Shown here in pieces: positions 3,515 to 57,340 of a stretch of 64,000 bases of DNA (positions are counted from its first letter, which is position 1; each line of letters begins with the position of its first letter). A program made the translations under genes and the position numbers. Source of the stretch: a virus (lineage: Duplodnaviria; Heunggongvirae; Uroviricota; Caudoviricetes); IMG/VR virus record IMGVR_UViG_3300027721_000010, positions 31,003 to 95,002 of that record; one strand, given 5' to 3'. The notes beneath the pieces were generated by a model. The model worked only from the letters and a program-made list of their open reading frames with translations, made no database searches and was not told where the DNA came from.

Positions 3515-4156
3515 CTATCTAATTCCTGACTGGGAAGGCATTCTGATTCCCAGGTCCTTGGCGGTCTCAGGAGAGAACATTGGAAGAAGCTGAGCTCCCT
3601 GGCTGGTAATGGGAAAAGACTTCATTAAATACTTAATGACGTAGTTCTTTTCTACCAGTTCCTCATCTCCTATGGCCAACCCGTACATCTCCTTTCCAAA
3701 GTTGGTAAGGGTTTTCTTGTAGTTTTCTATAAGTCCCAAGGATGGGAAAATACCCTGAGACACTAGGTTGAATATATTGGTAGGATTGTAGAAGTAGGCA
3801 ATCTCATCTGTGAACTTATCCGTAGCCTTGAGCATGAACTTCCATCTGTTTCTTACAATTGGGTCCTCATCCTCGTCAGGCATATTTGCCTTGAGTCCAA
3901 AGTAGATAGCCAAGAGACCTAGGAAGATAAGCAAGTCTAACATCTGGTTTTTCATGTTGGCTCTAACCAAGCTAATGAATTCATCCTCAGTCATTTCCAA
4001 CTCCTTACCAGTGTCTTTTTCGTAGTCCGCTTTCTTTTGTTCATAAAGCTGACGGATCTGTTGAACAAACTTATCATCGTTGCCAAGAATAGCACTCTTG
4101 AGGCTATCCAAAGCATTAATAGTATCTGTAGCTACGAATCTAAACAGCATTCTCAT
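3515..4156 (-). CDS. Hypothetical protein of 213 aa with one predicted TM or hydrophobic segment (LLIFLGLLAIYFGL).
   Basis: ORF with an ATG start, and operon context. Confidence 0.45.
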   Translation of the reverse strand: MRMLFRFVATDTINALDSLKSAILGNDDKFVQQIRQLYEQKKADYEKDTGKELEMTEDEFISLVRANMKNQMLDLLIFLGLLAIYFGLKANMPDEDEDPIVRNRWKFMLKATDKFTDEIAYFYNPTNIFNLVSQGIFPSLGLIENYKKTLTNFGKEMYGLAIGDEELVEKNYVIKYLMKSFPITSQGAQLLPMFSPETAKDLGIRMPSQSGIR

Positions 4157-4165
4157 TATACCACA

Positions 4166-38882: not shown

Positions 38883-39983
38883 TTAAAGACCGCAAGGTCC
38901 TGTAGGTGTTATACTTCCACTTCCTCCAGTTTGAACAACTGTTCCAGTTTCTGCACATATTGATATGCCACCTGAACCTACAGTTTGTGTTAAGAATTCA
39001 CCTGAGCATGCAAGCCACTCTATACTAATAGATGGACTACCCACCACATCATATTGTGTACAGTCTAAAGGAGCTTCTGTAGTGGTGGTGGTAGTTGTAG
39101 GTGGTGGCTCTGTAGTGGTTGTAGTTGTTGTAGTGGGACCTGCTTCAGTTGTAGTGGTGGTTGTTGTAGGAGGAGCTACGTCAGTAGTGGTAGTTGTAGT
39201 AGTTGGAGGTACGTCAGTTGTAGTAGTGGTAGTTGTGGGTGGTTCAAGAGTAGTTGTAGTAGTGGTAGTGGGTGGTTCAAGAGTTGTAGTTGTAGTAGTT
39301 GTAGGAGGTATTAAAGTGGTTGTAGTGGTAGTAGTTGGGGGGATAAGAGTAGTTGTAGTAGTTGTTGTTGGAGGTACACCACCTGTTGTAGTAGTTGTAG
39401 TTGTGGGAGGTGCAATTGTTGTAGTGGTAGTGGTTGTAGGTGGTGTAATCGTAGTGGTTGTTGTAGTTGTGGGACACGCTCCAAGAGTTGACAGCGTTAC
39501 ACCAGGGGTTGGTGGTACAACAACAGATCCTGTACAAGCGCACACATAAATAGTGCTAGGTCCTGCGACACATGTTTGAATGTATATTCCTCCACAAGCG
39601 TAGTAAACAATGTCAACACTTGAAACAGTGGAATTGGTTACAGAATAGAATGTACAAGAAGGACATGCTATTGTAGTGGTGGTAGTAGTAGTTGGAACTA
39701 CAGTTGTGGTGGTGCTGGTTGTTGTTGGGCAACAGTTGTTCAGAGAAGCTTGAAGAATACTAATTTGCTGCTTTAACAAACATATCTGAACATCAACCTT
39801 TTGAAACGCTACAGTTACTGTGTCACAAGTCTTGATTTGTGTACAAGGTAGATTGGGACCGCTATAAGAAACGTTATTTGTTGGTATAGGAGATGCATTA
39901 CAAGGATCACATCCACCATATCCACCACAGGGAGATGGATGTGGGGTTGGTGTGCAGCACGGGTTTGGTGGCAGGAATATCAT
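38883..39983 (-). CDS. Fibre or decoration protein of 366 aa. It has a Cys-rich N-terminus, about 12 tandem 11-aa repeats (xxPPTTTTTTT) and a C-terminal Cys module shared with the 1784-aa protein.
   Basis: ORF, a 33-bp tandem repeat in the DNA, and the shared C-terminal module. Confidence 0.55.
   Translation of the reverse strand: MIFLPPNPCCTPTPHPSPCGGYGGCDPCNASPIPTNNVSYSGPNLPCTQIKTCDTVTVAFQKVDVQICLLKQQISILQASLNNCCPTTTSTTTTVVPTTTTTTTIACPSCTFYSVTNSTVSSVDIVYYACGGIYIQTCVAGPSTIYVCACTGSVVVPPTPGVTLSTLGACPTTTTTTTITPPTTTTTTTIAPPTTTTTTTGGVPPTTTTTTTLIPPTTTTTTTLIPPTTTTTTTLEPPTTTTTTTLEPPTTTTTTTDVPPTTTTTTTDVAPPTTTTTTTEAGPTTTTTTTTEPPPTTTTTTTEAPLDCTQYDVVGSPSISIEWLACSGEFLTQTVGSGGISICAETGTVVQTGGSGSITPTGPCGL
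39079..39484. repeat. Tandem array of about 12 units of 33 bp encoding PPTTTTTTTxx (a mucin-like linker).
   Basis: The periodic repeat shows as GG(x)VVVVVVV in the plus-strand mirror ORF 38965..39549. Confidence 0.7.
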
Positions 39984-40004
39984 TTTATATAAAGAGTTTA
40001 ACTA

Positions 40005-41123
40005 TTAAGGAATGTACATGATGTAATAACATCCCAGACCAGGCTGGAAGTTGGGATGGCTCAATCCACCTCCTGCAGAAGCAACTGTGACAGTAGTGTC
40101 TACGGTGATACCAGTTTGTGCTGTGTCTACCACATCAACTCTTGCCTTGCTCTGCCAGTCGAAAACGTCAGAACCACTAGGACTAACACTATTTCCTCTA
40201 TCTCCAGTACCAGCCCACGTGTCTGGAACAAGGCTGTGGATATGTCCAGGGTCTGTTACAGTGCTTACAGCAGTGGCAGTGTGAGTGTGAGAAGGAATCT
40301 GATTGGTAGTAAGTACCACAGAGTTAGTTCCTTGTGTTCCCAACAATGCATAAGCAGGATTACCAAGAGCTGGGTCAACAGCAGGATTCAAAGCACCACC
40401 ACCCATACCAGATGTAACACCAACTGGTACACGTCCTCTTTTATCAGGAGTACCGTTGTTTCCATTACATAAGTAGATTTTCTCCCAATCAGTTCCAACA
40501 ATACCAGCACCTGTAGCATCAAAGTTACCCGTAAGACTACCATAGTATTCTACAACAGTGTTGGGCACCATTCTAGTATTATACTTGGTACCACCTCCAC
40601 TGATTGATGCTAAGTAGGCAGCAATAAGTGTATTCAGGTTTGCAATCTGTACATAGTTAGTGCTTACGTTTAGAGCAAGTGCGTCCAATTCAACCTCCAG
40701 ACCACAAATCTTAGTGATGGCTGCCTGAAGGATGGCATGTGTTCCAGAAGTGCTAGTTACACCAGTAAGACATCCTACACTGTAGGGTCCTTCCAATGCA
40801 GCAAAGTCAGCCTCTAGTTCTGTAAGACGTTCATCTAATTCACAGATGGCTTTGATAATAGCAGTGATTACATTAGGAAGACTAAGCTCTTCACAAGCAA
40901 TTAAGTTTTTCTTTACGATATCACAAATAATGGTAGGATTAATATCTAAATTAATACCTTCACCATTCAGTGTAGATGTGAGAAACGTAATCAATGCTTG
41001 CTCTACATATGAGAGCGAATCACCAGTTTTGATTCCCAAAATGGGAACATCAATCCCTGTATATCTTACGCACTGATCAGATACTATCTCTGTACATCCA
41101 TTATAGCAGTTAGAACAAGACAT
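40005..41123 (-). CDS. Tail fibre protein of 372 aa with a C-terminal phage tail-collar domain (MdpB-like).
   Basis: The C-terminal motif …WEKIYLCNGNNGTPDKRGRVPVG…GGGALNP…VVLTTNQIPSHTHTA matches the tail-collar consensus (W..C.G…LPDLRGR.P.G…LT..Q.P.HTH). Confidence 0.6.
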   Translation of the reverse strand: MSCSNCYNGCTEIVSDQCVRYTGIDVPILGIKTGDSLSYVEQALITFLTSTLNGEGINLDINPTIICDIVKKNLIACEELSLPNVITAIIKAICELDERLTELEADFAALEGPYSVGCLTGVTSTSGTHAILQAAITKICGLEVELDALALNVSTNYVQIANLNTLIAAYLASISGGGTKYNTRMVPNTVVEYYGSLTGNFDATGAGIVGTDWEKIYLCNGNNGTPDKRGRVPVGVTSGMGGGALNPAVDPALGNPAYALLGTQGTNSVVLTTNQIPSHTHTATAVSTVTDPGHIHSLVPDTWAGTGDRGNSVSPSGSDVFDWQSKARVDVVDTAQTGITVDTTVTVASAGGGLSHPNFQPGLGCYYIMYIP

Positions 41124-41390
41124 TTATCTAAATTTTAGAATTTTAACTCTGCTGGCAATCATATTTACAGTGAAGGCAGCGTTATAATTAGGATTGCAAT
41201 ACTTATAAACAAGAATCCTTCTGTAGTTAAGAAGGTCCAACATTGTTCCACCAGGAACAGGTTGGTTCAAAATAAACACAACATTGTTGTATAAATTGTT
41301 GGCCAGGTTGGCTAGCTTGCAATCAATCTCAGCAATTAGTGCTGGGATACTAGCGCACTCTGGACAATTTGTAAGCCTGGGTGATAACAT
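41124..41390 (-). CDS. Hypothetical protein of 88 aa.
   Basis: ORF with an ATG start, in operon context. Confidence 0.4.
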   Translation of the reverse strand: MLSPRLTNCPECASIPALIAEIDCKLANLANNLYNNVVFILNQPVPGGTMLDLLNYRRILVYKYCNPNYNAAFTVNMIASRVKILKFR

Positions 41391-41502
41391 TTGTTATAAT
41401 TTTTCGTCCTTGTTTAACAGCTGCATTGCAAGCTCCACAAAGACCATTAATCAATTGACATCCACACCCAACGTTAGCTCCGCAGTTTCTACACTTAGCC
41501 AT
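41353..41502 (-). CDS. Possible small Cys-rich peptide of 49 aa (MAKCRNCGANVGCGCQLINGLCGACNAAVKQGRK…). It fills the 113-nt gap and overlaps the start of the 88-aa gene in another frame.
   Basis: Hand translation of an ORF below the track threshold. The Cys spacing (CxxC…CGC…CxxC) suggests a zinc ribbon. Confidence 0.25.
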
Positions 41503-41503
41503 A

Positions 41504-42067
41504 CTAATAGAAGTTTATTACGTAGTTATTTCCAGAGCAACCGCAGTTGTTTTTGAGGAAGTTATCAAGCATTATGTCTGCCTGGTTATACAGCTTCATT
41601 GCTTCCTCTGTAGCACAGTTGTTAGCTGCGGCTATAGATCCTTGAATGAAGAAGTATATGGAAGTGAGGTCCACCTTTGCTTGTGTTTTGATAGCTCTGT
41701 CGCACTCCATCATATCAAGCTTCATGAATGCACCATCAAACTTTTCTTGTAACCTTTCAACACGCATAATTGACTTTTCTACAAAGTTGATATATGCAGG
41801 TGCTACAGAATATTTTAAATAGTACACACCATCAGGAAGTGGTTGTTCCACACCTGGTGCAGTGATGCCTAAGTTTGAAGAGTTGAAGATGTTGAAATCA
41901 TTAACACTAAAAGGTCTGTACACAATACCAAAACCAGGAACATTAATCTCAATTGTAGCTCCAGAAACAACAGGAGGGTTTGTAGGATAGACAGATGCAT
42001 CAGCAATTCCCAACGTAAGTGTGTTGTACGTAGGAATCACTAGTATGTCTAGTTTCAAGTCTGCCAT
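41504..42067 (-). CDS. Hypothetical structural protein of 187 aa.
   Basis: ORF in operon context. Confidence 0.5.
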   Translation of the reverse strand: MADLKLDILVIPTYNTLTLGIADASVYPTNPPVVSGATIEINVPGFGIVYRPFSVNDFNIFNSSNLGITAPGVEQPLPDGVYYLKYSVAPAYINFVEKSIMRVERLQEKFDGAFMKLDMMECDRAIKTQAKVDLTSIYFFIQGSIAAANNCATEEAMKLYNQADIMLDNFLKNNCGCSGNNYVINFY

Positions 42068-48759: not shown

Positions 48760-51356
48760 TATTTCTTAGATTTAGGTGGTTTAGATCTACCCTTTGCGTT
48801 TTCTTTAGCTACAGCTAGGTCATTTTTCTGGTTCTCACGAGCCACCTGAAGTTTCTCTCTTTCAAGAGCTAGCTTCTCAGCAGCCAGTCTATTCTTTGTG
48901 TTGATGTCAGCCATCTTCATCTGGTAGTCCTTTGCAGTTCTGTCTCTTTCTGCACTTATCTTACTGATTTCCAGCACATCAGGAGTTCCAGACTCATCAA
49001 CATCAGCCAGTCCCATACCCATAGACTTGGACTCTGCAGCAATTAGAGCAATCTCTTTTTTATTGATACGGTCCAGCTCATTCTGATAGTTCTCATTAGC
49101 TATGTCCTGTTCTTTCTGCACTTGAGCTTGTTGCATCTGAGCTTGAGCAATTTGACCTTGTTGTTCAATTTGTTGCTGCTGCATCTGCATTTTCTGCTCT
49201 TCCATTTTCTGCTGTCTGTCACGCAAATCCTTGAACACCTTCTTCATTTGTCTCATTGACTTGGTGCTGTACAGCTCAATTACATCATACAGAGATCCAC
49301 CATTCTGCATCAAAGGTTGAGCCAATTGACGCAACTCGTTGAACATCTGTGTATCCTCAGGACGATTTGTCAAGAACACCTTCAGGTCACGGAACTTTAA
49401 GTCAGACCCGTTAACAGAAACAAAAGCAGACTCACCCTCATTAGTAATATAACTAAGCGTAGACTGAGGCTTCTTGCTTTCTACATACAGGGCAGCATCA
49501 ATGATGGCTTGGTAGAGTTGGCCCATTACATATTCGTGTGCTATAAACAGGGGTTCTGTTTGAGCATAAGACTGTTGTACAGCTGTGTTTACACCTGTAG
49601 CAGATTCGCTAGCTGTAATAGATCCCATACGTTGTCTACTCATTCCTACGAGTTCCCAACATTCGCTCTTAAGCTGTTGGGCCAGTGTGTAACGAGATTG
49701 TATCTCTTGTGTACGTGTGAGGTCAATGTCTCTAAACTGGTTGAAGCTAGAGGGACTCTTCAGGTTCTCAGGGCTGTCATCAATAAAGACAACACCTCTG
49801 TTTCTTGCCTCCAGTTCCCAGATGTCTAGGGCATCTTGAGCATCACCATCCTTAGGAACGGGGATGTGTCTGATGGATGTCAGGTACACCTTACCCACTT
49901 CCTTCTCTAACAGTTTGTAGAGCTGGTTCATACACACGTTGTACAGCACCTGGAAAGGCTTCATCAAATCTACAAGACTCTTAGCCTCTGTGTTCTTCAC
50001 CTCAAAGGTGATACCAACAATAGGGCAATAGTTAAGAAGTTTGAACGGTTTAACGTGATAGATATCTGGACCTATCTTGGTTCCCTGATACCACTGGTTA
50101 ATCCATCCCCACTCCAAACTTTGTTGTGTAGGAATGCTACCACTCTTATAGTTTTCATCTACTAGAACAGACTGTTCATTACCAAGCTCGTCTATATAGA
50201 TGAGTTTACCTATCTTCTTCTTACTTAACCAATAACCTCTAACGACAACATATTTGTATCCAAATGAAGACACATTTGATGTGAGTCCCAAAAAGTCTTT
50301 CAGCCCATCACTATTCTCCTTCATCTCGCTTTCAATAATCATACGAGTTTGGAGAACAAGCGGGTCAAATGTATCATATGTCACTGAGTCAATACCAGGA
50401 ACCACGTTGGGGTTTCCAAGATTGGACTCACGTACGTTAATTAATCCATAGTCTTGAAGTGAGCTCCTGAGGTGGTCAATCTCTTCTTTTGTGAGATCAG
50501 GAATGCTTTCAATGATTTCCGAAAGCTCCATAACCTGAACTGTACCAGCAGCATACGCACCTTGTGCTCTACCTGTAGGGTCAGAAATATACTTTCTGTC
50601 AGGAGTGGTGAGGAACCATGTGTTCTTGGGGTTAGCCACCTCAATGTTGAATCCCAGCTTAGAGTTGTCCTCATAGATGTGGTAGAACTCTCGTCCAGAA
50701 ATAAGCATATCTCTAAAGGCATCTTCTGATTTCTCCTTCAGATTAAACTCAGCCTTTTGACATGTCAGCACATGATTGGCCCACTTCTCAGCTACAGATG
50801 TGTAACTGTCCAGGACATCCTGCACATCTTCCATTGTCATTTGTTGCACCTCTTCCTCAGAAAGCTCTTCACCATTCATGGCAGCATTTGCCAAGATTTG
50901 TTGTCTAGCTTTTCCTAAAACATATTCTTGAAGAATCTGCGTCTTAAATTCTAACTCTTCAGATTTGCTATCATCATCAAATGCTTTCACCCTGAATGTG
51001 TCAGGGCGTTTACTAATCTCACCAACCAGTTCATTAACAGGAGTGGTGATGATTGAGTACATCTTTACATAGGCTGGCAATTGCAGATCTGCTGTAAGGA
51101 CATCTGTAAATGAACGCACCTGAGGTTCCTGATAGAAATCTTCCATCCTCAGGATACCTTTCATTAGGTCGTAGTTTTTGACAAATGTGTCTCTGTTCTT
51201 TACAAACTCAGCATAGGCCTTGTTTGCAAAGTAGTCCATTGTGTTTTTGATCCAGCTCTCATCTTGCTTCTCCTTGTCAGTCTTGAACTGGTCAGGAAAG
51301 ATGTTAAGATAGGCATACCTAATGGTAGCATCTTTCGTATATCTAATAATTGCCAT
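48759..51356 (-). CDS. Candidate portal protein of 865 aa, with a C-terminal coiled-coil and a Lys-rich tail.
   Basis: It lies immediately downstream of TerL with a TAATG overlap, and its size suggests a portal. This is a synteny-based inference. Confidence 0.45.
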   Translation of the reverse strand: MAIIRYTKDATIRYAYLNIFPDQFKTDKEKQDESWIKNTMDYFANKAYAEFVKNRDTFVKNYDLMKGILRMEDFYQEPQVRSFTDVLTADLQLPAYVKMYSIITTPVNELVGEISKRPDTFRVKAFDDDSKSEELEFKTQILQEYVLGKARQQILANAAMNGEELSEEEVQQMTMEDVQDVLDSYTSVAEKWANHVLTCQKAEFNLKEKSEDAFRDMLISGREFYHIYEDNSKLGFNIEVANPKNTWFLTTPDRKYISDPTGRAQGAYAAGTVQVMELSEIIESIPDLTKEEIDHLRSSLQDYGLINVRESNLGNPNVVPGIDSVTYDTFDPLVLQTRMIIESEMKENSDGLKDFLGLTSNVSSFGYKYVVVRGYWLSKKKIGKLIYIDELGNEQSVLVDENYKSGSIPTQQSLEWGWINQWYQGTKIGPDIYHVKPFKLLNYCPIVGITFEVKNTEAKSLVDLMKPFQVLYNVCMNQLYKLLEKEVGKVYLTSIRHIPVPKDGDAQDALDIWELEARNRGVVFIDDSPENLKSPSSFNQFRDIDLTRTQEIQSRYTLAQQLKSECWELVGMSRQRMGSITASESATGVNTAVQQSYAQTEPLFIAHEYVMGQLYQAIIDAALYVESKKPQSTLSYITNEGESAFVSVNGSDLKFRDLKVFLTNRPEDTQMFNELRQLAQPLMQNGGSLYDVIELYSTKSMRQMKKVFKDLRDRQQKMEEQKMQMQQQQIEQQGQIAQAQMQQAQVQKEQDIANENYQNELDRINKKEIALIAAESKSMGMGLADVDESGTPDVLEISKISAERDRTAKDYQMKMADINTKNRLAAEKLALEREKLQVARENQKNDLAVAKENAKGRSKPPKSKK

Positions 51357-53380
51357 TATGTAAACAATTTACTTTTTTTCCTTGGGAATAGTCCTCTTGA
51401 TTCTGTAAATAGCTGGTTTTTCTTGTTTGGTCTAAAGAATGCTTTCAGTCTGTCATCTCCTGATCCACCCACCTTTCCAAGTATGGGGTCCATCTTAAGA
51501 GCCTGTGCAATAGCTAGTTCTGCTGCTACGATACGGTCAAAGTTACCCTGATCGTTATATTGGATGATTTCCTCCAACAGAACAGGATCAAATATCTTTG
51601 ACACACCCGTCACCTCTTTGATGATATCACCATCCTCGTTCTTTTCCTGATATACAACAGCCTCCATATACTTCTTCAGACAGTTGTGCAGATAGTCTCT
51701 TATCTTATCTGCTGAGCGGTGCACCCCGTACTCACGCTTTACAGTGGTACCAGGCACCACCTCTTTCAACCATTCAGGTTGTTTCTCAAGGTAGTGTGCA
51801 TCTCCTTTAGCTTTCATATATTCTATGAAGGAGATGTCATCATTTTCACAGAGCGTACGTGCATTATAGTATTTGATAAGAAGTCTAGCCTGTTCTTCCC
51901 AGGTTTCTTTCTTATCAGGTCTTGCACAATACGAAGCTACGAACATATCTTGGTATTTCTCACCAGTTATGTCGTGCATTCTCTTATAAATATATACAGA
52001 ACCCAAAGATGTAGAATAGGCAGCTTGTCCTTGTCTATAAGGGTCAACTCCTGCTACATAGAGTCCGTACGGTGGGTTTTCTAAAGGAAACTCATATACC
52101 ACTACAGGAGCATCCTTCAGATCCGTATTCTTTAGGGGGAAGTTAGTGATGGGTTGTTTGTCTGTAAACTCATGACTAATCTTCTCTCCATCATGGAACA
52201 GAATTACAGGTGTACCTGTACGTTCCTGATTAATCAGCCTAGCTTTCTGTCGCTTAGCTGCTTCTATGTCAAATATGTTTGTGTCCTCATTCAGGAAGAT
52301 GTCATCCACTTCCATGGGATAGTACATCTTCTCTTTCAGATAGGCCACTCTATCTCCAGCCTTTTTCAGGCGTTCTAGATTAGATTCTGTAATTTGTTTA
52401 GCCTTCTCCTCATTACTCACCAACATCCTAACCTCATGAATATCACTTCCTTCAGGCTCCCCTAGAAACGCACCCAACGTACTTTCTTCCTTAGCCTCCA
52501 TTCGATACTTATGCGAAATAAACAGGCCATGAATACGTTTCTCATCTTTTTCATTCTGGTAGGTTAAGAAGTTGAAGTTATCTACATCAAACATCAGAGA
52601 CTTAGCATCCATGAATCGCTTCATGTCACCACCAGTACCTGTAAGAATGGGAGAACAACCCCATCCATAAGGTGTGGTGAAACCAGGCACAGCTGCCTGG
52701 AAACCTCTAAGGAAATTCCCTTTACCAATCTCATCAATAATTAGTTTACGTGGTTTAGTACCTGCAATAGCCTCTTCATTGTTACCCTCATCTAGGTTAC
52801 GAATGAGTATCTGAGAGAACGGTATACGCTCTCCTGATTTGGTCTTAATACCTAGGGTGACTTGGTTTTTCCAGTTGTCCTCAACTCTCTGCCATCTCCA
52901 TGCTTCAGGTAGGAAGTTGAGGCCCTTGTCCAGCTTGTCTGTGATCAGCTTTATATCGGGGGCATTCAACCCAGCGATCACATTCTGGGAATTCTCATCA
53001 AATGTAGCGCCCCACCCTATGTAAGAAGCCTCTAAAACAGACTTGGCAAAACGTCGTATTCCTAGTATTACCAAGCCCTTTTTTTCTTGTTGTGCTCTGT
53101 CTATCTCATTTGTCACTATCCACTCATTGTCACGTAGGAGAGGATTGGCATATTTCTGGGAGATTCTTCCTCTCTCATCTATCACATCCACCTCTGTGTG
53201 CCACACGTTCAGGTGCCAGTAAAGGAATGGGTTGATGTACACCCCATTCATTGAACACCCGTTTAGACATATTTCTCTATGAAAGTCAAAAAATGGCTTA
53301 TACTCTGCAGACTCACGGTCAGGCAGACGTCCCTGGTTAATGAGCCAGTCTTTGTAATCTATGCTTTGTATGCCATTCAT
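51356..53380 (-). CDS. terL: Terminase large subunit of 674 aa.
   Basis: A Walker A-like motif LVILGIRRFAKS, a Walker B motif KLIIDEIG, and a nuclease-domain Asp motif YVAGVDPY in the C-terminal half. Confidence 0.65.
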   Translation of the reverse strand: MNGIQSIDYKDWLINQGRLPDRESAEYKPFFDFHREICLNGCSMNGVYINPFLYWHLNVWHTEVDVIDERGRISQKYANPLLRDNEWIVTNEIDRAQQEKKGLVILGIRRFAKSVLEASYIGWGATFDENSQNVIAGLNAPDIKLITDKLDKGLNFLPEAWRWQRVEDNWKNQVTLGIKTKSGERIPFSQILIRNLDEGNNEEAIAGTKPRKLIIDEIGKGNFLRGFQAAVPGFTTPYGWGCSPILTGTGGDMKRFMDAKSLMFDVDNFNFLTYQNEKDEKRIHGLFISHKYRMEAKEESTLGAFLGEPEGSDIHEVRMLVSNEEKAKQITESNLERLKKAGDRVAYLKEKMYYPMEVDDIFLNEDTNIFDIEAAKRQKARLINQERTGTPVILFHDGEKISHEFTDKQPITNFPLKNTDLKDAPVVVYEFPLENPPYGLYVAGVDPYRQGQAAYSTSLGSVYIYKRMHDITGEKYQDMFVASYCARPDKKETWEEQARLLIKYYNARTLCENDDISFIEYMKAKGDAHYLEKQPEWLKEVVPGTTVKREYGVHRSADKIRDYLHNCLKKYMEAVVYQEKNEDGDIIKEVTGVSKIFDPVLLEEIIQYNDQGNFDRIVAAELAIAQALKMDPILGKVGGSGDDRLKAFFRPNKKNQLFTESRGLFPRKKSKLFT

Positions 53381-53989: not shown

Positions 53990-54169
53990 TTAGGCTATAA
54001 TTCCAGCCGAACTTGCAGACAACTTGCTTAATCCAGGCGTAATCACGTCTTTCAAAAGCTTAGCAATCTGTTCGTTAGCTAGAGTTTTAACATCTTCAGA
54101 TACTCCTGGTGTAGCCACCAAGGCTCCCAGCTTTTCAATAACAATCCATGCTTCTACTACAGGGTTCAT
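53990..54169 (-). CDS. Small protein of 59 aa (MNPVVEAWIVIEKLGALVATPGVSEDVKTLANEQIAKLLKDVITPGLSKLSASSAGIIA). It falls below the ORF-track threshold, and its ATG overlaps the stop of the upstream gene (ATGA).
   Basis: Hand translation. It fills the 185-nt gap and shows a translational-coupling overlap. Confidence 0.35.
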   Translation of the reverse strand: MNPVVEAWIVIEKLGALVATPGVSEDVKTLANEQIAKLLKDVITPGLSKLSASSAGIIA

Positions 54170-54417
54170 ATTAATTGGTTTAAATCTTCGTCATCAAGTT
54201 TTCTAGAGGGATCAATCTCTATCTCTACATCAAAATCCTCTTTGTCTCCCTTTGTATAATACTCCTCTTTAATAGATATTCCTATGTTATCTTGGAAATC
54301 GTCAGGTATGCCTATAATATCCACGTAATCAGCACCTTTGTTCCAGGCATCTGTCAGCACCTCAATGAATAACTTCAGAGGTATCTTTTTAAGGGTGACT
54401 TCTTGTCTATTTTCCAT
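54166..54417 (-). CDS. Acidic hypothetical protein of 83 aa.
   Basis: ORF. Confidence 0.4.
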   Translation of the reverse strand: MENRQEVTLKKIPLKLFIEVLTDAWNKGADYVDIIGIPDDFQDNIGISIKEEYYTKGDKEDFDVEIEIDPSRKLDDEDLNQLI

Positions 54418-54703
54418 CTTTTTTCATTTGCTCTTCTTGTTCTTGCGTAACCACTGCCAGCCATTTTTCTAATGGACAGGCACATGAAAGACATTTGGTT
54501 TTGGCAGACAGGGTGCACCCACAATGGGTACAATGAGCATCAAGACGGATGGTTTTATAGTTCTTTCTGTTAGCAGAGTGGTATTCACATCCCTTGCAGA
54601 TGTTTATCCTTTCCCTACTCGTCTCGTTTATCGCTGTCTTTAGTTTCTCTGGGGGCAGTAGGTTGTTCCTCCAACCCTCGTAAATCTGAGACACTAGTTT
54701 CAT
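54407..54703 (-). CDS. Cys-rich zinc-ribbon protein of 98 aa (CKGCEY…CTHCGC…CLSCAC).
   Basis: ORF with four Cys pairs. It overlaps the upstream HU-like ORF by 89 nt, so the start or frame is uncertain. Confidence 0.4.
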   Translation of the reverse strand: MKLVSQIYEGWRNNLLPPEKLKTAINETSRERINICKGCEYHSANRKNYKTIRLDAHCTHCGCTLSAKTKCLSCACPLEKWLAVVTQEQEEQMKKDGK

Positions 54704-54995
54704 ATATCTTTGGTTTTAAGTCTCTTATCCCGTCCAGAGCTATTTGAAGCTTCAATGCTGCCGACTTCCTTTTGGCTTCTGGCAGCGTTTCGTCATTTGC
54801 CCATTTCTCAAAAAGCGCCTTCTGACTCAGAAACTTCTCCATCGTCTTGTGCGCCTTTTTCTCGTTGAAAAAGAACTTCCCAAACCCACTGATTTCCACA
54901 CTCTTATTCTGTGTCAACGCCTCGTTAGCGCTTTGGAACTGGTGGTTAATAATGGTCTCCAGCGTCTTCTCACTCATCCTCACCTTGACCGCCAT
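54615..54995 (-). CDS. HU/IHF-family (DNABII)-like DNA-binding protein. The start is taken at the internal Met (MAVKVRMSEKTLETIINHQFQSANEALTQNKSVEISGFGKF…); the track ORF extends to 55079.
   Basis: The N-terminal helices and the ISGFGKF turn match the N-terminal half of HU, but the C-terminal arm is atypical. Confidence 0.4.
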   Translation of the reverse strand: MAVKVRMSEKTLETIINHQFQSANEALTQNKSVEISGFGKFFFNEKKAHKTMEKFLSQKALFEKWANDETLPEAKRKSAALKLQIALDGIRDLKPKIYETSVSDLRGLEEQPTAPRETKDSDKRDE

Positions 54996-55035
54996 CTTTC
55001 TGATGATGTAGTCCTTGATGGAGAGGCTCACGGGC

Positions 55036-55386
55036 TTATCCGTGAACAAGTCTGATTTCAAGGGTGACATCATGTTCAAAGTTTAACAAGATTTGTGGAT
55101 TCACCTTCACCTTTGTCCCATCCTTCACCAGCACCCCTACCTTCTTCAGCCTAGAAATGATGTTATTTATGGAGGCATTGGTGGTGCCATACTTTTCACA
55201 GAAATCCTTACGTATGTTAGCGTAAGAAATATTACCCCTTACAGCAGCAAAAGCCAGGAGCTGTATTTCTCTCTGTGTCAGCTTCAGATCGTTTACAGCA
55301 GACAGGATGGTATAATACCTCTCAGCCAGTAGGGTGTTATCCTTCTCAGCTTTCCTTAGTTTCTGTAATACGATGGTGGTTTTCAT
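55036..55386 (-). CDS. Putative HTH DNA-binding regulator of 116 aa (…LTQREIQLLAFAA…), an early gene.
   Basis: A LuxR or sigma-region-4-like HTH signature, and a host-type promoter immediately upstream. Confidence 0.35.
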   Translation of the reverse strand: MKTTIVLQKLRKAEKDNTLLAERYYTILSAVNDLKLTQREIQLLAFAAVRGNISYANIRKDFCEKYGTTNASINNIISRLKKVGVLVKDGTKVKVNPQILLNFEHDVTLEIRLVHG

Positions 55387-55400
55387 ATATTTAGTTAGTA

Positions 55401-55440
55401 CAAAGATAGGAAGTATTTATAACATAGTCAAATACAATCT
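55401..55440 (-). promoter_or_regulatory. Bacteroidetes-type sigma-A promoter on the minus strand: the -33 element TTTG (rc of 55429-55432), a 20-nt spacer, and the -7 element TATCTTTG (rc of 55401-55408). It lies about 15 nt upstream of the ATG of the regulator gene.
   Basis: Matches the TTTG…TAnnTTTG consensus with the canonical spacing. Confidence 0.35.
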
Positions 55441-55599
55441 TTTACACTATTGCTATATTATGTCCTTTTTCCCTACCAGATACACCATTCCCATTCTTAA
55501 ATCCTTAGTTATGGAGATCTCCATTCACCACATTCAACCACCTATTGACTATCTATCCCTAGGAGGTATAGAGTCTAATAACCCACCCTCCACCCCAAA

Positions 55600-55800
55600 G
55601 TTACAACACATCCCCCATATATCCAACAAATTTTTTTCCGTAAACCCATACCCTTACAAAATACCCCCTAGGGTAAACCTCTAGGTTGACTATCCCCCCT
55701 AGTTTGTTCCACGTGAAAAAACCCCCCTATCCGTGAAGGGGGAGGTTACTCCACACCAAGGACCCGGGGGCAGGATGCGCGGTGGGAGCCACCCCCCGTG
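55600..55800. promoter_or_regulatory. C-rich, GC-rich divergent intergenic region carrying three direct CCCCCCTA(G) repeats about 30 bp apart (at 55664, 55694 and 55722). It also holds a CCCCCT/AGGGGG hairpin (55722..55743) and a GC-rich block (55755..55800). It is a candidate operator, iteron or origin region.
   Basis: Read from the sequence. Its composition is atypical for this AT-rich genome. Confidence 0.4.
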
Positions 55801-55844
55801 CTTCGTTAACAAGGAGTCACCTTGTAAAAAACTGTCGAATAATT

Positions 55845-56264
55845 ATGGCACAAGAACTGCGTATCAAATCAGGCGTATGGTCAGAGAAAGGCAACTTCAC
55901 TGCAAAAACTGCGTACGGTAAAACTTTCTTCATCCACAAGAACCAGATGGCAGAGTTGGGCTACGAGCCTAAGGCTGAGGTTAAGTTCCCATTCTATGCA
56001 GTGGTTGACACCACTATGATTGGTCAGCTTGACAAGAATGGTGACCCTCTGATGGGCGAAGATGGTAAGCCCGTGCAGGTTGCTCGTGAGAGTGCTCTGT
56101 CCGTGTTCAGCACACTCGAAGAGTTGCAGGCTTGCGCCATCGAAGAGCGTACTATTGGTGCAGACATCGAAATTGCTGTTCAGCAGCACGTTCGTAGCAA
56201 GGTTAGCACCAGCGGTTTGAGTGAGCAAGCTGTTAACAACATCCTTGCCAGCTCATTAGTGTAA
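55845..56264 (+). CDS. First plus-strand gene, 139 aa, function unknown (MAQELRIKSGVW…). It is followed by a strong terminator. The track ORF begins at 55782 inside the GC-rich region, and the ATG at 55845 is preferred.
   Basis: ORF, an in-frame ATG after the GC island, and the downstream terminator. Confidence 0.45.
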   Translation: MAQELRIKSGVWSEKGNFTAKTAYGKTFFIHKNQMAELGYEPKAEVKFPFYAVVDTTMIGQLDKNGDPLMGEDGKPVQVARESALSVFSTLEELQACAIEERTIGADIEIAVQQHVRSKVSTSGLSEQAVNNILASSLV

Positions 56265-56273
56265 GATTAATCG

Positions 56274-56310
56274 AAAGTCTCCTCAATCAGGGGAGACTTT
56301 CTTTTATTCC
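56274..56310 (+). terminator. Rho-independent terminator (GTCTCC-TCAATCAG-GGGAGAC then TTTCTTTTATT).
   Basis: Stem-loop with a T-run, immediately after the stop at 56264. Confidence 0.6.
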
Positions 56311-56848
56311 TTATATATATGGGTGGGGAAACATGAAATGTTCCTTGGGTGGGACATATTAAGATGCATAACGCATTGATTCTCTGTGAGTTAGAGAGAG
56401 GCTGTGTGACCCATTACCACTTTTTAGGGGTAAAACCAGACATTGCACAATTATAAGCTTACAAGAATAAATATAGCATTAATGCACCACAAACAGCTTC
56501 CCAAGGGCTGACAGATGTGTAACACAATAAGTATAACAGCTACATTAATAAAAGTTATACATCTGAGTGCAGAGGGATATGTATCTTATGACCTGAAAGG
56601 GTGCTGCATAAAAAGTGGGTAGTAAAGGGTTAAGTCCCAGGATGTCCCAATCATAAGATCTAGCCACCATCTGGATAATCTCTGAAAAGGGTAAAGATGA
56701 TTGGCTTAGCCGAGACCTGAGCATGTCTATAAACTGCTTATTTATGTATCAGGTGTTTATCTGTTCGTACATCTTCACAGATCAGAGGCTTTGTGGATAG
56801 AGGCACAAAATCCATATTTTTTTACAAACCCTTAATAATCAATTAACT

Positions 56849-56953
56849 ATGTTAACATTATTCCTTATGTTCGGTCTTTATTTAGCCTATAGAGACATGG
56901 AACAATATGAGATTAGGATGGAGAACGATCTATATGAGCGTTCTGCTGAATAA
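56849..56953 (+). CDS. Possible 34-aa hydrophobic peptide (MLTLFLMFGLYLAYRDMEQYEIRMENDLYERSAE), preceded by a variant of the conserved leader motif.
   Basis: Hand translation, and the upstream motif taataatcaattaactATG. Confidence 0.2.
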   Translation: MLTLFLMFGLYLAYRDMEQYEIRMENDLYERSAE

Positions 56954-56983
56954 CTATTTCATAATCATTAAAAATCAAAAAAG

Positions 56984-57232
56984 ATGAAAAGCAATCTCTC
57001 ATGCATTATTTCTTTGAGCATTACAGGTGTTATATCTCTGTGCTCGTTATATTTGTCCTTCAGAGGTGTTGAAACTCTGGATAGTATTAATAACAGGATG
57101 GACAGATCTAATGTGGAATACCAATTTGTGGTGACAGATAGTACAATTACTGTCTGGGATGACAATAGGTGGGTTGGTACAGTGGCTCTAGAGGGTCAGT
57201 TGGACAGCTTGATTACATCTGACAACCAGTAA
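56984..57232 (+). CDS. Small protein of 82 aa with an N-terminal hydrophobic or signal segment.
   Basis: ORF from the track. Confidence 0.35.
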   Translation: MKSNLSCIISLSITGVISLCSLYLSFRGVETLDSINNRMDRSNVEYQFVVTDSTITVWDDNRWVGTVALEGQLDSLITSDNQ

Positions 57233-57244
57233 TGTTTATGTGCT

Positions 57245-57318
57245 GATCCTGTAGCTCAGTTGAATAGAGCAACAGCCTTCTAAGCTGTGGGCCATTGGTT
57301 TGAATCCAATCAGGATCA
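57245..57318 (+). tRNA. tRNA-Arg, anticodon TCT (decodes AGA), 74 nt with no encoded CCA.
   Basis: Manual fold. Acceptor GATCCTG/CAGGATC (7 bp); D-arm GCTC-AGTTGAATA-GAGC; anticodon stem ACAGC/GCTGT with loop CTTCTAA; variable loop GGGCC; T-arm ATTGG-TTTGAAT-CCAAT; discriminator A. Confidence 0.85.
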
Positions 57319-57340
57319 CTTAATTTTTCATTTTATATTT

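Follow-up and report, generated by a model that had tools for sequence, protein, structure and literature searches.

A divergent control region with a candidate early-transcription start module at the gene-strand switch of a crAss-like phage

We regard the case as evenly balanced for reading positions 55387-55845 of the 64-kb window (the whole stretch of phage DNA that was analysed) as a divergent promoter and control region in which a C-run array and a conserved 80-nt block, module B, form a start module for early transcription; this reading comes from sequence comparison. The left part would hold two host-type promoters firing leftward into the gene of a winged-helix protein and, beyond it, the packaging and structural genes. 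The right part, module B and a leader hairpin, would be the start module of the rightward early unit and would drive a gene that lacks a host-type promoter of its own and encodes a small OB-fold (SSB-like) protein. In the same evenly balanced explanation, the C-runs would be phased, strand-specific cis-elements about three helical turns apart that fill the space between the opposed start sites.

The window comes from a crAss-like phage, and its minus strand carries a 4258-aa open reading frame, the large terminase and the portal. The genes switch strand at 55387-55845, with leftward structural (late/middle) genes on one side and rightward early genes on the other, and the leftward order is winged-helix gene, neighbouring gene of a 154-aa HU/IHF-type protein, small genes and TerL. 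The host is probably a member of the Bacteroidota. Neither megablast of 54000-57000 nor tblastn of the 116-aa winged-helix protein matched any of 50,697 phage records, and no annotated close relative of the window was found, terminase identity being at most 41% to any record. The closest terminase relative is that of Leptolyngbya phage Lbo-JY46; this phage and Azobacteroides phage ProJPt-Bp1 were rejected as comparison genomes because their organisation around the terminase gene differs. A sigma-70 promoter scan returned nothing exceeding shuffle expectation, and an Rfam search of the whole window at gathering score returned one tRNA only. The features of the junction are as follows.

55036-55386, minus strand: open reading frame of the 116-aa winged-helix protein, first gene of the leftward block
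55401-55432, minus strand: proximal leftward promoter, with -33 TTTG at 55432..55429, a 20-nt spacer and -7 TATCTTTG at 55408..55401 (direct reading and TAnnTTTG scan)
55451-55462, unstranded: 12-mer TGCTATATTATG, present in all related junctions displayed
55582-55629, minus strand: block A, the distal leftward promoter, with -33 TTTG at 55629..55626, a 22-nt spacer and -7 TAACTTTG at 55603..55596 (TAnnTTTG scan)
55612-55616, plus strand: C5 run within the block A promoter spacer (direct reading)
55664-55668, plus strand: C-run unit 1 (C5 + TA), overlapping the palindrome CCCTAGGG and invariant among strains with identical gene 1
55673-55690, unstranded: palindrome GTAAACCTCTAGGTTGAC of the type GTAAA(G/C)CT..AG(C/G)TTGAC, sole copy in the window
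55694-55699, plus strand: C-run unit 2 (C6 + TA), compared among strains with identical gene 1
55706-55719, unstranded: half-degenerate palindrome GTTCCACGTGAAAA of the type GTTCC-N4-GGAAC (window scan)
55716-55743, minus strand: C6/G5 inverted repeat, then T6 on the minus strand (terminator scan)
55718-55797, plus strand: module B, 80 nt, with the proximal C-run (55722-55727) near one end and the last C-run (55792-55797) at the other (nhmmer profile)
55781-55793, plus strand: small GC hairpin GGTGG-GAG-CCACC (direct reading)
55810-55834, plus strand: leader hairpin CAAGG-AGTCA-CCTTG, then AAAAAACTG (comparison with the stems of relatives)
55845-56264, plus strand: gene 1, 139 aa, first rightward (early-side) gene (open reading frame)
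56273-56301, plus strand: strong intrinsic terminator behind gene 1, a 12-bp stem then a T-run (terminator scan)
56312-56353, plus strand: module C, TATATATAT-GGGTGGG-hairpin-GGGTGGG (sequence comparison)

A sequence-only reading had proposed a divergent control region here, with a Bacteroidetes-type promoter (TTTG-N20-TATCTTTG) driving the minus-strand regulator. Both proposals are supported. The promoter is present exactly as given and is conserved in relatives; the ATG lies 14 nt beyond its -7 box, and the block around it is conserved in close relatives. Upstream lies block A, whose -7 box runs straight into GGGGTGGAGGGTGGG (55596..55582) and whose pattern, CCC..AAAGnTA-N12-30-CAAAT, recurs in 60 of 66 relatives, with CCAAATTT of the -33 region also conserved. 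Both minus-strand promoters carry the Bacteroidetes sigma-A elements, TAnnTTTG at -7 and TTTG at -33, with spacers of 20 and 22 nt set beside the usual ~19-21 nt. Between them lies the 12-mer, which has just two further copies in the window, each with one mismatch. The sequence-only reading did not mention the distal leftward promoter, module B or the missing host-type promoter of gene 1.

The winged-helix gene adjoins the control region and always co-occurs with it. The AlphaFold model of its 116-aa product (pLDDT 76) has four helices and a beta-wing, and all of its Pfam matches are below threshold (Phage_rep_O, HTH_Mga and the MCM_C winged helix-turn-helix). The Phage_rep_O match scores 20.9 bits, the cut-off being 28.7, and phrog_428, a PHROG named replication initiation protein, is matched at E = 0.005. 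The best fold matches in the PDB are the N-terminal domain of T4 MotA, Zur and the MarR family, all at E >= 0.01. More than 750 homologues were found, part of them labelled MarR-family by JGI.

The plus-strand C-rich cluster that the sequence-only reading had described is real, and its clustering far exceeds chance. All three C6 runs of the window fall inside 104 nt, when ~7 C6 starts would be expected window-wide; C5+ runs are depleted across the window (14 observed vs ~32 expected), and 7 of its 32 G5+/C5+ runs lie within the 459 nt of 55387-55845 (binomial p = 3e-9). The earlier sequence description is borne out apart from small errors: the C-runs begin as stated at 55612 (C5), 55664 (C5), 55694 (C6) and 55722 (C6), while the one placed at 55791 begins at 55792 (C6). 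Likewise, two of the three quoted repeats, TATCCCCCCTAG and AACCCCCCTATCC, are exact, while the first reads ATACCCCCTAGGG with five Cs where six had been claimed. The three start 30 and 28 nt apart.

The array is shared by relatives, whose contigs were assembled from samples that include freshwater and wastewater (for example IMG 3300027675 and 3300009085). Across 56 distinct related junctions we counted a mean of 3.46 C5+ runs per junction, or 4.8 per kb vs 0.09 per kb downstream; strand-specific C5-8 runs are ~50-fold enriched over downstream sequence, G5+ runs average only 0.84 per junction, and the C-run spacing peaks at 28-32 nt. The lack of conservation in relatives that the sequence-only reading had named as refuting evidence was thus looked for and not found. 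The array nevertheless appears dispensable in part, since 3 of the 56 junctions have no C5+ run and the unit number varies from 0 to >6. Comparison of strains that share an identical gene 1 shows no change in the C-runs or module B but diverged spacers. A pooled alignment of 182 C-run units confines the information to C5-6 and the next one or two bases, and the flanks differ even inside a single genome. The proximal run is inverted (CTAGGGG) in three relatives, which fits a double-stranded DNA site.

The last two C-runs of the array belong to module B, whose layout is C6-TATCCGTGAA-GGGGGAGG-TTAC-TCC ... CCC-GGGGG ... GGTGG-GAG-CCACC-CCC and whose conserved box, TAT(T/C)(G/A)TGT.CAT, is unlike the Bacteroidetes promoter consensus. 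An nhmmer profile built from 40 relatives, of which the window is one, finds a single match in the window (E = 5e-11; next best E = 3). Every one of 66 relatives has one match per genome, always on the same strand and at a median of 48 nt upstream of the next (first rightward) ORF, and the module B core has one exact match per IMG/VR contig. Module B is nearly invariant among strains, and the first rightward ORFs that follow it fall into at least three unrelated-looking sequence families. Upstream of gene 1 the plus strand of 55604-55845 contains no TAnnTTTG. No fixed contig end was found at module B. A search of the literature on crAss early promoters, origins and G-quadruplexes returned nothing describing the element.

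Module B has no conserved RNA fold: RNAalifold places zero consensus pairs on 40 module B sequences, and the folding energy, at z about -0.9 vs dinucleotide shuffles on both strands, is neither unusual nor strand-biased. A preference for the plus strand through G-T wobbles, an impression gained by eye, was not borne out by these energies. The GC hairpins claimed by the sequence-only reading are present here and two palindrome types recur, but hairpins are not a general feature of the spacers: the mean best stem is 3.1 vs 3.0 in shuffled sequence, stems of at least 5 occur in 18% vs 7%, and hairpins between all C-runs were accordingly rejected as a general rule. The palindrome CCCTAGGG (55666-55673), the C6...G5 inverted repeat (55722-55742) and the GC-rich block (55760-55800) were all confirmed. 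The GTAAA(G/C)CT..AG(C/G)TTGAC type recurs in relatives and is not kept in two strains (L104, L110), and the GTTCC-N4-GGAAC type appears in relatives as GTTCCACGTGGAAC, GTTTCACGTGAAAC, GTTCCATATGGAAC and GTTCCTTGTGGAAC. The inverted repeat at 55716-55743 looks, from its sequence, like an intrinsic terminator of leftward transcription and is conserved only within the window's close group. Long-form junctions of relatives carry additional repeat families and AT-rich palindromes.

The small GC hairpin at 55781-55793 has counterparts in relatives of the form GGGG-N3-4-CCCC(CC), with variants GTGGG/CCCAC, GGGGGAT/ATCCCCC and TGGGG/CCCCA. The leader hairpin has six stems among relatives (ACAAGG/CCTTGT, TAGTGG/CCACTA, AGTGC/GCACT, TGTGG/CCACA, CCGTG/CACGG and CGTG/CACG), the first four of them with an AGNCA loop and AAAACTG afterwards, and a leader hairpin of at least 5 bp is found in 51% of leaders vs 13% of shuffles. 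Compensatory changes were seen only in this short hairpin and in that of module C; since the leader hairpin covaries, part of the region probably acts as RNA or single-stranded DNA and not as duplex. A 24-nt leader hairpin is common to one relative (L018) and cr50_1, with a chance expectation that we estimate at ~0.08. On the minus strand of the array, G5-6 tracts are separated by 22-24-nt loops, beyond canonical G-quadruplex limits; ViennaRNA predicts a G4 solely in block A on the minus strand, with a model that cannot handle long loops.

Gene 1 belongs to no Pfam or PHROG family. Its AlphaFold model (pLDDT 80) has a beta1-3/alpha/beta4-5 topology, the N-terminal domain being predicted to form an OB-fold and the C-terminal part a long helix; the product is putatively SSB-like, its PDB fold matches being mostly SSB proteins but weak (E 0.008-0.1, TM 0.25-0.37). 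Because module B exists in a single copy and a strong terminator ends gene 1, module B cannot be the promoter of the whole early region, and later early genes must use another element, perhaps TATATA-GGGTGGG boxes. Module C occurs in 52 of 66 relatives with a hairpin whose sequence varies in a compensatory manner, and its positions 56321-56353 fit G3-N1-G3-N19-G3-N1-G3. It lies beyond 55387-55845, yet shares the GGGNGGG box logic.

In the start-module reading, we infer an early start inside module B, and the C-runs would work as DNA, serving as upstream or loading elements of the early-transcription polymerase, which by analogy with phi14:2 would be the virion-packaged RNA polymerase. They could be protein-contact sites, or easily melted, structure-prone DNA between two divergent promoters. 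In a more specific scheme, which we put forward as an unlikely one, the crAss-type virion RNA polymerase would enter at module B and the phased C-run/palindrome array. Under negative supercoiling, the G/C runs between the divergent starts would be extruded as hairpins or four-stranded structures, which would leave template DNA single-stranded. Loading on this stretch, the polymerase would begin at the G-rich box that follows the proximal C-run, near 55738, and the first product to result, the SSB-like protein, would keep the template open. The G/C-run clusters at the same junction in AT-rich gut Crassvirales would then be diverged versions of one device, and the site might double as an origin.

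The main rival, a replication origin that is possibly transcription-activated and could coexist with the promoter reading, seems to us unlikely. Equally unlikely in its details, it would make the phased C-runs and palindromes initiator sites for the winged-helix protein or a host factor, with the HU-like protein bending the DNA, the SSB-like gene 1 product coating the unwound strand, and G-rich initial transcripts of the divergent promoters forming stable RNA-DNA hybrids that could prime DNA synthesis. The site is unique and its repeats are phased, the HU/IHF-type gene lies next to it and the OB-fold SSB-like gene stands first on its other side, and the extra repeat families and AT-rich palindromes of the long-form junctions would suit an origin. 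In the prototypic crAssphage, moreover, an origin supported by coverage is predicted directly upstream of the first forward-strand gene, repL (PMC10983915). The cumulative GC skew of the window also has its minimum at 55-56 kb, but this coincides with the gene-strand switch and is thus no independent evidence of an origin. Similarly, the Phage_rep_O and PHROG replication-initiation matches of the winged-helix protein lend the idea some colour, but the Rep_O-like matches are under the Pfam cut-off and its fold matches are generic winged helix-turn-helix regulators. The iterons suggested by the sequence-only reading are not borne out as classical ones: an iteron array (at least three direct repeats of ~17-22 bp) was rejected because the logo of 182 units has no shared flank and the common unit is merely C5-6 + TA. 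Finally, the fixed orientation of module B and its short, fixed distance to gene 1 suit a promoter or leader, and an origin would need neither. Quite unlikely is that the sites are operators of the 116-aa protein, which would bind the array, shut off early rightward transcription, autoregulate its own promoters and so work an early-to-late switch. The regulator gene is adjacent and always co-occurring, the sites lie between two divergent promoters, their ~30-bp phasing puts them on one helix face, the proximal run is found inverted in three loci, and the protein's fold resembles MarR, Zur and the MotA N-terminal domain. The palindromes may be operators, and those of the GTTCC-N4-GGAAC type have their half-sites conserved and their centre free, as in dimer sites; palindromes diverge between strains, however, and the C-runs do not. 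The C-run motif lacks symmetry and is very short for the site of a winged-helix dimer, its proximal copy belongs to module B, which is linked to the first rightward gene, and the spacers have no general inverted-repeat enrichment. Crassvirales genomes without a tblastn-detectable homologue of the winged-helix protein likewise have G/C-run clusters at this junction.

Most of the folding results bear on a further alternative, that the region is a structured non-coding RNA or riboregulatory 5' leader acting by base-pairing or protein binding, and they leave it highly improbable. The RNA would be a rightward transcript with unpaired C-rich motifs between hairpins or, within that same low estimate, a leftward G-rich transcript ending at the 55743..55722 hairpin and T6. 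The leader hairpin (55810-55824) covaries, as does that of neighbouring module C, and the minus strand has its terminator-like hairpin; in phi14:2, the one transcription study describes abundant early non-coding RNAs from left-end intergenic regions (bioRxiv 10.1101/2020.03.07.982082). Against this, the Rfam search of 55387-55845 at E <= 10 gave three chance-level matches only and thus no family, module B yields no consensus pairs, folding energies are close to those of shuffles with neither strand favoured overall, the spacers between C-runs change without preserving pairings, and the terminator-like hairpin is confined to the closest group. Least probable of all, and by a wide measure disfavoured, is the packaging (pac/cos) site or physical genome end suggested by the sequence-only reading, in which the terminase would recognise the C-run array helped by the HU-like and winged-helix proteins, whose genes lie just upstream of its own. 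Lambda cosB is recognised by Nu1 and IHF, and the order of genes here (winged-helix, HU-like, small genes, TerL) is reminiscent of cos-Nu1-A. Contigs end within 4 kb upstream (the early side) of the regulator in ~30 of 80 loci vs 3 downstream, eight of the ends lie inside the control region, two more assemblies start at C-runs, and short terminal repeats are described for crAss001 and pac packaging for crAss002 (PMC8042965). Even in near-identical phages, however, the ends fall at differing positions in or beside G/C runs (275, 703 and 1001 nt in L041-L043). Such scatter fits assembly breaks at homopolymers or variable sequence, and contig ends were rejected as genome termini because of it; moreover, complete-size contigs (104-118 kb) carry the junction at arbitrary internal positions, and we saw no second copy of the region in the rest of the window.

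crAss-like phages count among the most abundant human gut viruses and are also common in other habitats. To our knowledge, each of them injects a giant RNA polymerase for transcription of its early genes. The sole study of a crAss-type polymerase reports no promoter motif, and activity only on single-stranded DNA (bioRxiv 10.1101/2020.03.07.982082). Module B is a concrete candidate for the start of early transcription: an 80-nt, single-copy, orientation-fixed element before the first early gene in >60 related genomes, with a compositional echo, in the form of G/C runs, at the matching junction of five other Crassvirales. Should the region prove to be no more than a regulated divergent promoter or an origin, it still marks the boundary between early and late genes and would offer a handle for annotating and engineering crAss-like phages, for instance through insertion sites, origin or promoter cassettes and an explanation of assembly breaks.

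Among those Crassvirales, phi14:2, cr50_1, cr10_1 and cr130_1 show a ~10-fold enrichment of G4+/C4+ runs at this junction and crAss001 a weak one, with p = 3e-10 for the pooled data; the junction layouts look similar by eye. When the module B profile was run with nhmmer against the junction loci of five Crassvirales, the top matches fell in the junctions at E > 1; they are a lead only, and deep sequence conservation is not demonstrated by them. A close parallel is the early/middle junction g110/g111 of Cellulophaga phage phi14:2, where, as here, leftward host-type promoters and rightward early genes share one divergent intergenic region. According to the phi14:2 study, the virion polymerase gp66, which is active in vitro only on single-stranded DNA, transcribes the rightward genes, and these are early; the leftward genes use host-polymerase promoters, among them the leftward middle promoter P110 at this junction; and the authors found no motif common to the regions upstream of early transcripts (bioRxiv 10.1101/2020.03.07.982082). 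G/C runs are 8-fold enriched at g110/g111, and the sequence before g111, TTTGTGT..ATCAT-CCCCC-..AATT-GGGG-AGTAT-CCCC..hairpin..AATTAATTAAT..ATG, resembles the 3' half of module B, although the similarity is not significant (nhmmer E = 1.4) and phi14:2 lacks the GGGAGGGGAGGG-TAC-TYCC core, a multi-unit C-run array and a detectable winged-helix homologue.

Coliphage N4 offers a parallel, in that a virion-delivered polymerase must there too locate its first promoters on incoming DNA. The promoters of the N4 virion RNA polymerase consist of small GC hairpins with 3-nt loops; they form when the DNA is supercoiled and require SSB. There are three of them, dispersed and with their own consensus, and the polymerase is T7-like. 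The junction described here has a candidate 5-bp GC hairpin with a 3-nt loop (55781-55793), which would fit the N4 geometry (5-7 bp stem, 3-nt loop; loops of 3 to 6 nt in relatives). It also has another hairpin that covaries, DNA prone to form structure, and a first gene whose product is SSB-like. The crAss-type polymerase, in contrast, is an unrelated two-barrel enzyme, and one composite module takes the place of three promoters. An N4-family hairpin promoter was rejected on the single copy per genome and on the 4258-aa crAss-type protein that is encoded where no N4-type enzyme is; module B would work at most like N4 and is no member of the N4 family. We know of no crAss-like phage for which hairpin-promoter activity has been shown.

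Both leftward promoters match Bacteroidetes primary-sigma promoters in the two elements (-33 TTTG/-7 TAnnTTTG), with their 20- and 22-nt spacers, and in distance to the gene, whereas the C-run array and module B do not match that consensus. The T7 left end has tandem host promoters A1-A3 ~100 bp apart and then gene 0.3. The present junction likewise places close tandem elements before a small, variable first early gene with its own terminator; unlike those of T7, however, its units lie 30 nt apart, too short for separate promoters, and the last is the only one next to a start-like G-rich box. Iteron origins, such as lambda ori with its O protein and the predicted crAssphage origin by repL, share with this region a unique intergenic site at the head of the forward-strand genes, phased repeats, an adjacent small winged-helix protein and a GC-skew turning point, which here coincides with the gene-strand switch. 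Unlike them, it has no long shared iteron, its neighbouring protein is no recognisable O or RepL, and its orientation and distance to gene 1 are fixed.

The genes of the window switch strand exactly at the C-rich region 55387-55845: all genes from 3043 to 55386 lie on the minus strand, and those from 55845 onward lie on the plus strand. Besides a 4258-aa ORF and further giant ones, the minus-strand block holds an ORF of portal size and a large terminase. Among annotated phages, those with a related terminase are Crassvirales or phages of Cellulophaga/Flavobacterium, and identity never exceeds 41%. Given this distance, and given that neither the local DNA nor the 116-aa regulator protein matches annotated phage records, the window represents a crAss-like lineage not yet described. 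Its Bacteroidetes-type promoters make a member of the Bacteroidota the probable host, and one 112-kb contig that binning assigned to Cytophagia carries a regulator homologue. A lone GC-skew spike (+0.41) lies inside the minus-strand block at 39001-40000. The early region carries a tRNA-Arg (TCT) at 57245-57319 (plus strand; ARAGORN and Rfam) and a conserved leader, AATCAATTAGTTATG (some copies with 1-2 mismatches), directly 5' of four small early ORFs (56837, 57391, 57693 and 58113, plus strand). The elements discussed are as follows.

51356-53380, minus strand: large terminase ORF, 674 aa
55432..55401, minus strand: proximal leftward promoter, TTTG-N20-TATCTTTG, 14 nt 5' of the ATG of the 116-aa gene
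55451-55462: conserved 12-mer TGCTATATTATG
55582-55629, minus strand: block A, TTTG-N22-TAACTTTG, continuing directly as GGGGTGGAGGGTGGG
55664 (C5), 55694 (C6) and 55722 (C6), plus strand: C-run array, TA after each run, GTAAACCTCTAGGTTGAC and GTTCCACGTGAAAA between runs
55718-55797, plus strand: module B, C6-TATCCGTGAA-GGGGGAGG-TTAC-TCC ... CCC-GGGGG ... GGTGG-GAG-CCACC-CCC
55810-55824, plus strand: leader hairpin CAAGG-AGTCA-CCTTG, then AAAAAACTG and an A/T-rich leader before the gene 1 start codon (ATG, 55845)
56273-56301: gene 1 terminator, 12-bp stem
56312-56353, plus strand: module C, TATATATAT-GGGTGGG-gaAACATgaaATGTTcctt (hairpin)-GGGTGGG, directly 3' of the gene 1 terminator

Block A, found in 60 of 66 relatives, is a predicted distal, second leftward promoter of the host type. 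Several relatives (L044, L080, L030, L048 and L026; ~90-340 upstream of the regulator) carry an additional small minus-strand ORF between the regulator gene and block A; the matching 190 nt of the window (55411-55580) hold no ORF. No plus-strand TAnnTTTG was found upstream of gene 1.

The sequence-only reading had described C-runs, direct repeats and hairpins here, and this description holds apart from two small errors: the first 'CCCCCCTA' repeat contains five Cs in the actual sequence, and the last C-run begins at 55792 rather than 55791. All three C6 runs of the 64-kb window fall within 104 nt, and 7 of its 32 G5+/C5+ runs lie inside the 459 nt of the region (p = 3e-9), a clustering that is not due to chance; over the window as a whole C5+ runs are depleted (14 observed vs ~32 expected). 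At 33062/33082 and 45176/45191 a C5 run has a G6 run 15-20 nt behind it, probably forming GC hairpins, and the module B profile matches weakly at 33059-33089 (E = 3).

A search of IMG/VR with the 116-aa protein returned 80 loci at 62-92% identity. Run statistics cover 56 distinct junctions. Each junction holds a mean of 3.46 C5+ runs (4.8 per kb) vs 0.09 per kb in the early region that follows, G5+ runs are fourfold rarer than C5+ runs, and TA is the most frequent dinucleotide after a C-run. Measured from start to start, 54 of 141 intervals fall in the main peak of 28-32 nt, smaller peaks lie at 12 and 69-71 nt, and the number of units per junction ranges from 0 to more than 6. Near-identical loci (L005/L006/L055; L017-L019, L041-L043, L047) carry the same C-run, upstream of the regulator, as C6, C7 or C8; either the homopolymer truly varies in length or the difference is an artefact of sequencing or assembly. 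Between runs, two palindromes recur, GTAAA(G/C)CT..AG(C/G)TTGAC and GTTCC-N4-GGAAC, the latter also as symmetric GTTTC..GAAAC and as both asymmetric intermediates; a general enrichment of inverted repeats between runs was not found in the 56 junctions. The sole other GTTCC-N4-GGAAC palindrome of the window, GTTCCACCAGGAAC at 41245-41258, sits in the inter-ORF gap 41123-41504. Iterons, one of the functions first proposed, were rejected in the usual sense of the term because the flanks of the C-run units have no sequence in common. Ten assemblies encode an identical gene 1 protein; in all ten, module B and the C-runs are unchanged, but two have diverged across 55606-55700, a stretch that takes in the first palindrome. 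This argues for selection on the runs and their phasing and not on the spacers.

An alignment of 40 distinct copies defines the layout and profile of module B: an A/T-rich AAAATTTT, a C-run and TAT(T/C)(G/A)T(G/A)T.CAT; then GGGAGGGGAGGG-TAC-T(T)CC, ~8 nt and CCCCTCC or a C-run; and finally, after 10-20 nt, GGGG-N3-4-CCCC(CC), ATTATTAA or a hairpin, an A-rich leader and ATG. All 66 loci that reach at least 1.5 kb have exactly one copy by this profile (66/66), always oriented with the early genes; the next ORF starts 24-316 nt further on (median 48 nt). Module B is single-copy in the window, and each IMG/VR contig with its exact 20-mer core has that core once. Because the gene 3' of it comes from no fewer than three sequence families, similar in size (127-148 aa), module B goes with its position, first in the rightward block, and not with one specific gene.

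A promoter for rightward transcription must exist in the interval from block A to gene 1, where module B is the sole conserved candidate. The most economical reading is thus that the region would serve as a divergent promoter/control region, in which the C-runs may be phased upstream or loading elements of an early start module; the polymerase at module B, the exact start site and the partner touching the C-runs are ones we infer. The element is a well-conserved variant among the divergent early/late control regions of phages. It supplies a concrete candidate for the early start signal of crAss-like phages.

The interpretation first proposed (a divergent control region with candidate operators, iterons or an origin, or a packaging site) finds support in part, for the divergent control region and the Bacteroidetes-type promoter of the regulator. 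The main rival is a replication origin, which is compatible with the promoter reading because in many phages transcription activates the origin. The cumulative GC-skew minimum falls at the region, though confounded by gene strand, HU-like and SSB-like genes flank it, and an origin is predicted at the equivalent place in prototypic crAssphage (PMC10983915). The gene adjoining the regulator codes for an HU/IHF-type protein. Gene 1 (55845-56264, plus strand) encodes a 139-aa protein for which no family was found; its model (pLDDT 80) has the OB-fold order beta1-3/alpha/beta4-5 plus a long helix, with weak PDB matches, mostly to single-stranded-DNA-binding proteins. Operators of the winged-helix regulator are a less likely function. 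The 116-aa protein is modelled as a winged helix (pLDDT 76), its family matches are all sub-threshold (Phage_rep_O, HTH_Mga, MCM_C), and its fold matches are generic (T4 MotA N-terminal domain, Zur, MarR; E >= 0.01).

A pac site is likewise less likely. Some 30 of the 80 contigs end within 4 kb of the regulator on the early side vs 3 on the other, eight end inside the control region, and two more assemblies begin at C-runs. Across L001-L080, L108 and L111, the early side of the regulator has about ten times as many contig ends as the late side. These ends differ in position even between near-identical phages, typically within a G or C run, and in full-genome-size contigs (104-118 kb) the junction lies at arbitrary internal sites. 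A physical genome end here was rejected, since the ends are scattered and full-size contigs are cut elsewhere; we read them as assembly failure at homopolymers and a variable early region. Evidently the control region either assembles poorly or varies within populations. Riboregulatory RNA is also a less likely explanation. RNAalifold gives no consensus base pair for module B, minimum free energies are near those of dinucleotide shuffles on both strands (mean z -0.9; no folding advantage for the plus strand, the minus slightly more stable), Rfam returns nothing for the region, and the proximal C-run is swapped for its inverse CTAGGGG in three loci; a DNA-level signal is therefore favoured for module B and the array.

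The leader hairpin probably acts as RNA or single-stranded DNA. Six unrelated stem sequences occupy its position across relatives, four of the six with an AGNCA loop followed by AAAACTG, and hairpins of at least 5 bp occur in 51% of leaders vs 13% of shuffles. AAACCTTGTGGTGTACAGGCAACC (L018, ~3145, minus strand) and AAACCTTATGGTGTATAGGTCAAC (cr50_1, 4135, minus strand) each lie 14-15 nt 5' of a start codon; a compensatory change of G-C to A-T separates their stems, and the pair is unique in ~0.9 Mb of loci.

The module C pattern is shared by 52 of the 66 relatives, and its hairpin varies in sequence by lineage with compensatory changes; Rfam has no match for it. Module C has the sequence pattern of a quadruplex-type motif, G3-N1-G3-long hairpin loop-G3-N1-G3. 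Since a GGGNGGG box follows a T/A-rich element at three putative starts (block A, minus; modules B and C, plus), G-rich starts with C-rich spacers may be a shared theme of the region. From module C on, ~550 nt (56300-56850) lack a convincing ORF. This stretch may yield a non-coding transcript like the early non-coding RNAs that phi14:2 is reported to make in abundance (bioRxiv 10.1101/2020.03.07.982082).

Junctions of studied Crassvirales are also enriched in G4+/C4+ runs.

phi14:2 (L098), 1254-1611: TTTGTGT..CATCCCCCA..AATTGGGG-AGTAT-CCCC..hairpin..AATTAATTAAT..ATG
cr50_1 (L099), 4101-4308: CAAGTCCCCTCTCC-TAACAAGTA-GGGG-AAAT-CCCCC, then a hairpin like that of the L018 leader with a compensatory change
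cr10_1 (L100), 7745-8114: GAGTGTAGAG..ATACAAA-CCCCCTCCCCC..CCCCC
cr130_1 (L101), 11921-12100: TATGTGTATGAGAGAAGAGGGGG-ACTATA-GGGGG
crAss001 (L103), 681-998: GTGTCATGGTAGGGGTACTGGAAAC

Of the five best matches to the module B profile, three lie in these junctions in matching orientation and a fourth lies in the crAss001 junction on the opposite strand, all at E > 1; sequence homology is thus only a lead. The compositional echo is solid: pooled, these AT-rich genomes have 16 G4+/C4+ runs in 1.4 kb of junction vs 75 in 61 kb (p = 3e-10), an 8- to 15-fold higher density than in the surroundings in four genomes and 1.5-fold in crAss001. In phi14:2, the early genes are those pointing rightward, and the virion polymerase gp66 transcribes them. 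This enzyme resists rifampicin and was active on single-stranded or denatured DNA only. An upstream motif for early transcripts was not found, and leftward genes have host-polymerase promoters, including P110 at the equivalent junction (bioRxiv 10.1101/2020.03.07.982082). The window matches this asymmetry, with canonical host promoters leftward and a conserved non-canonical module rightward.
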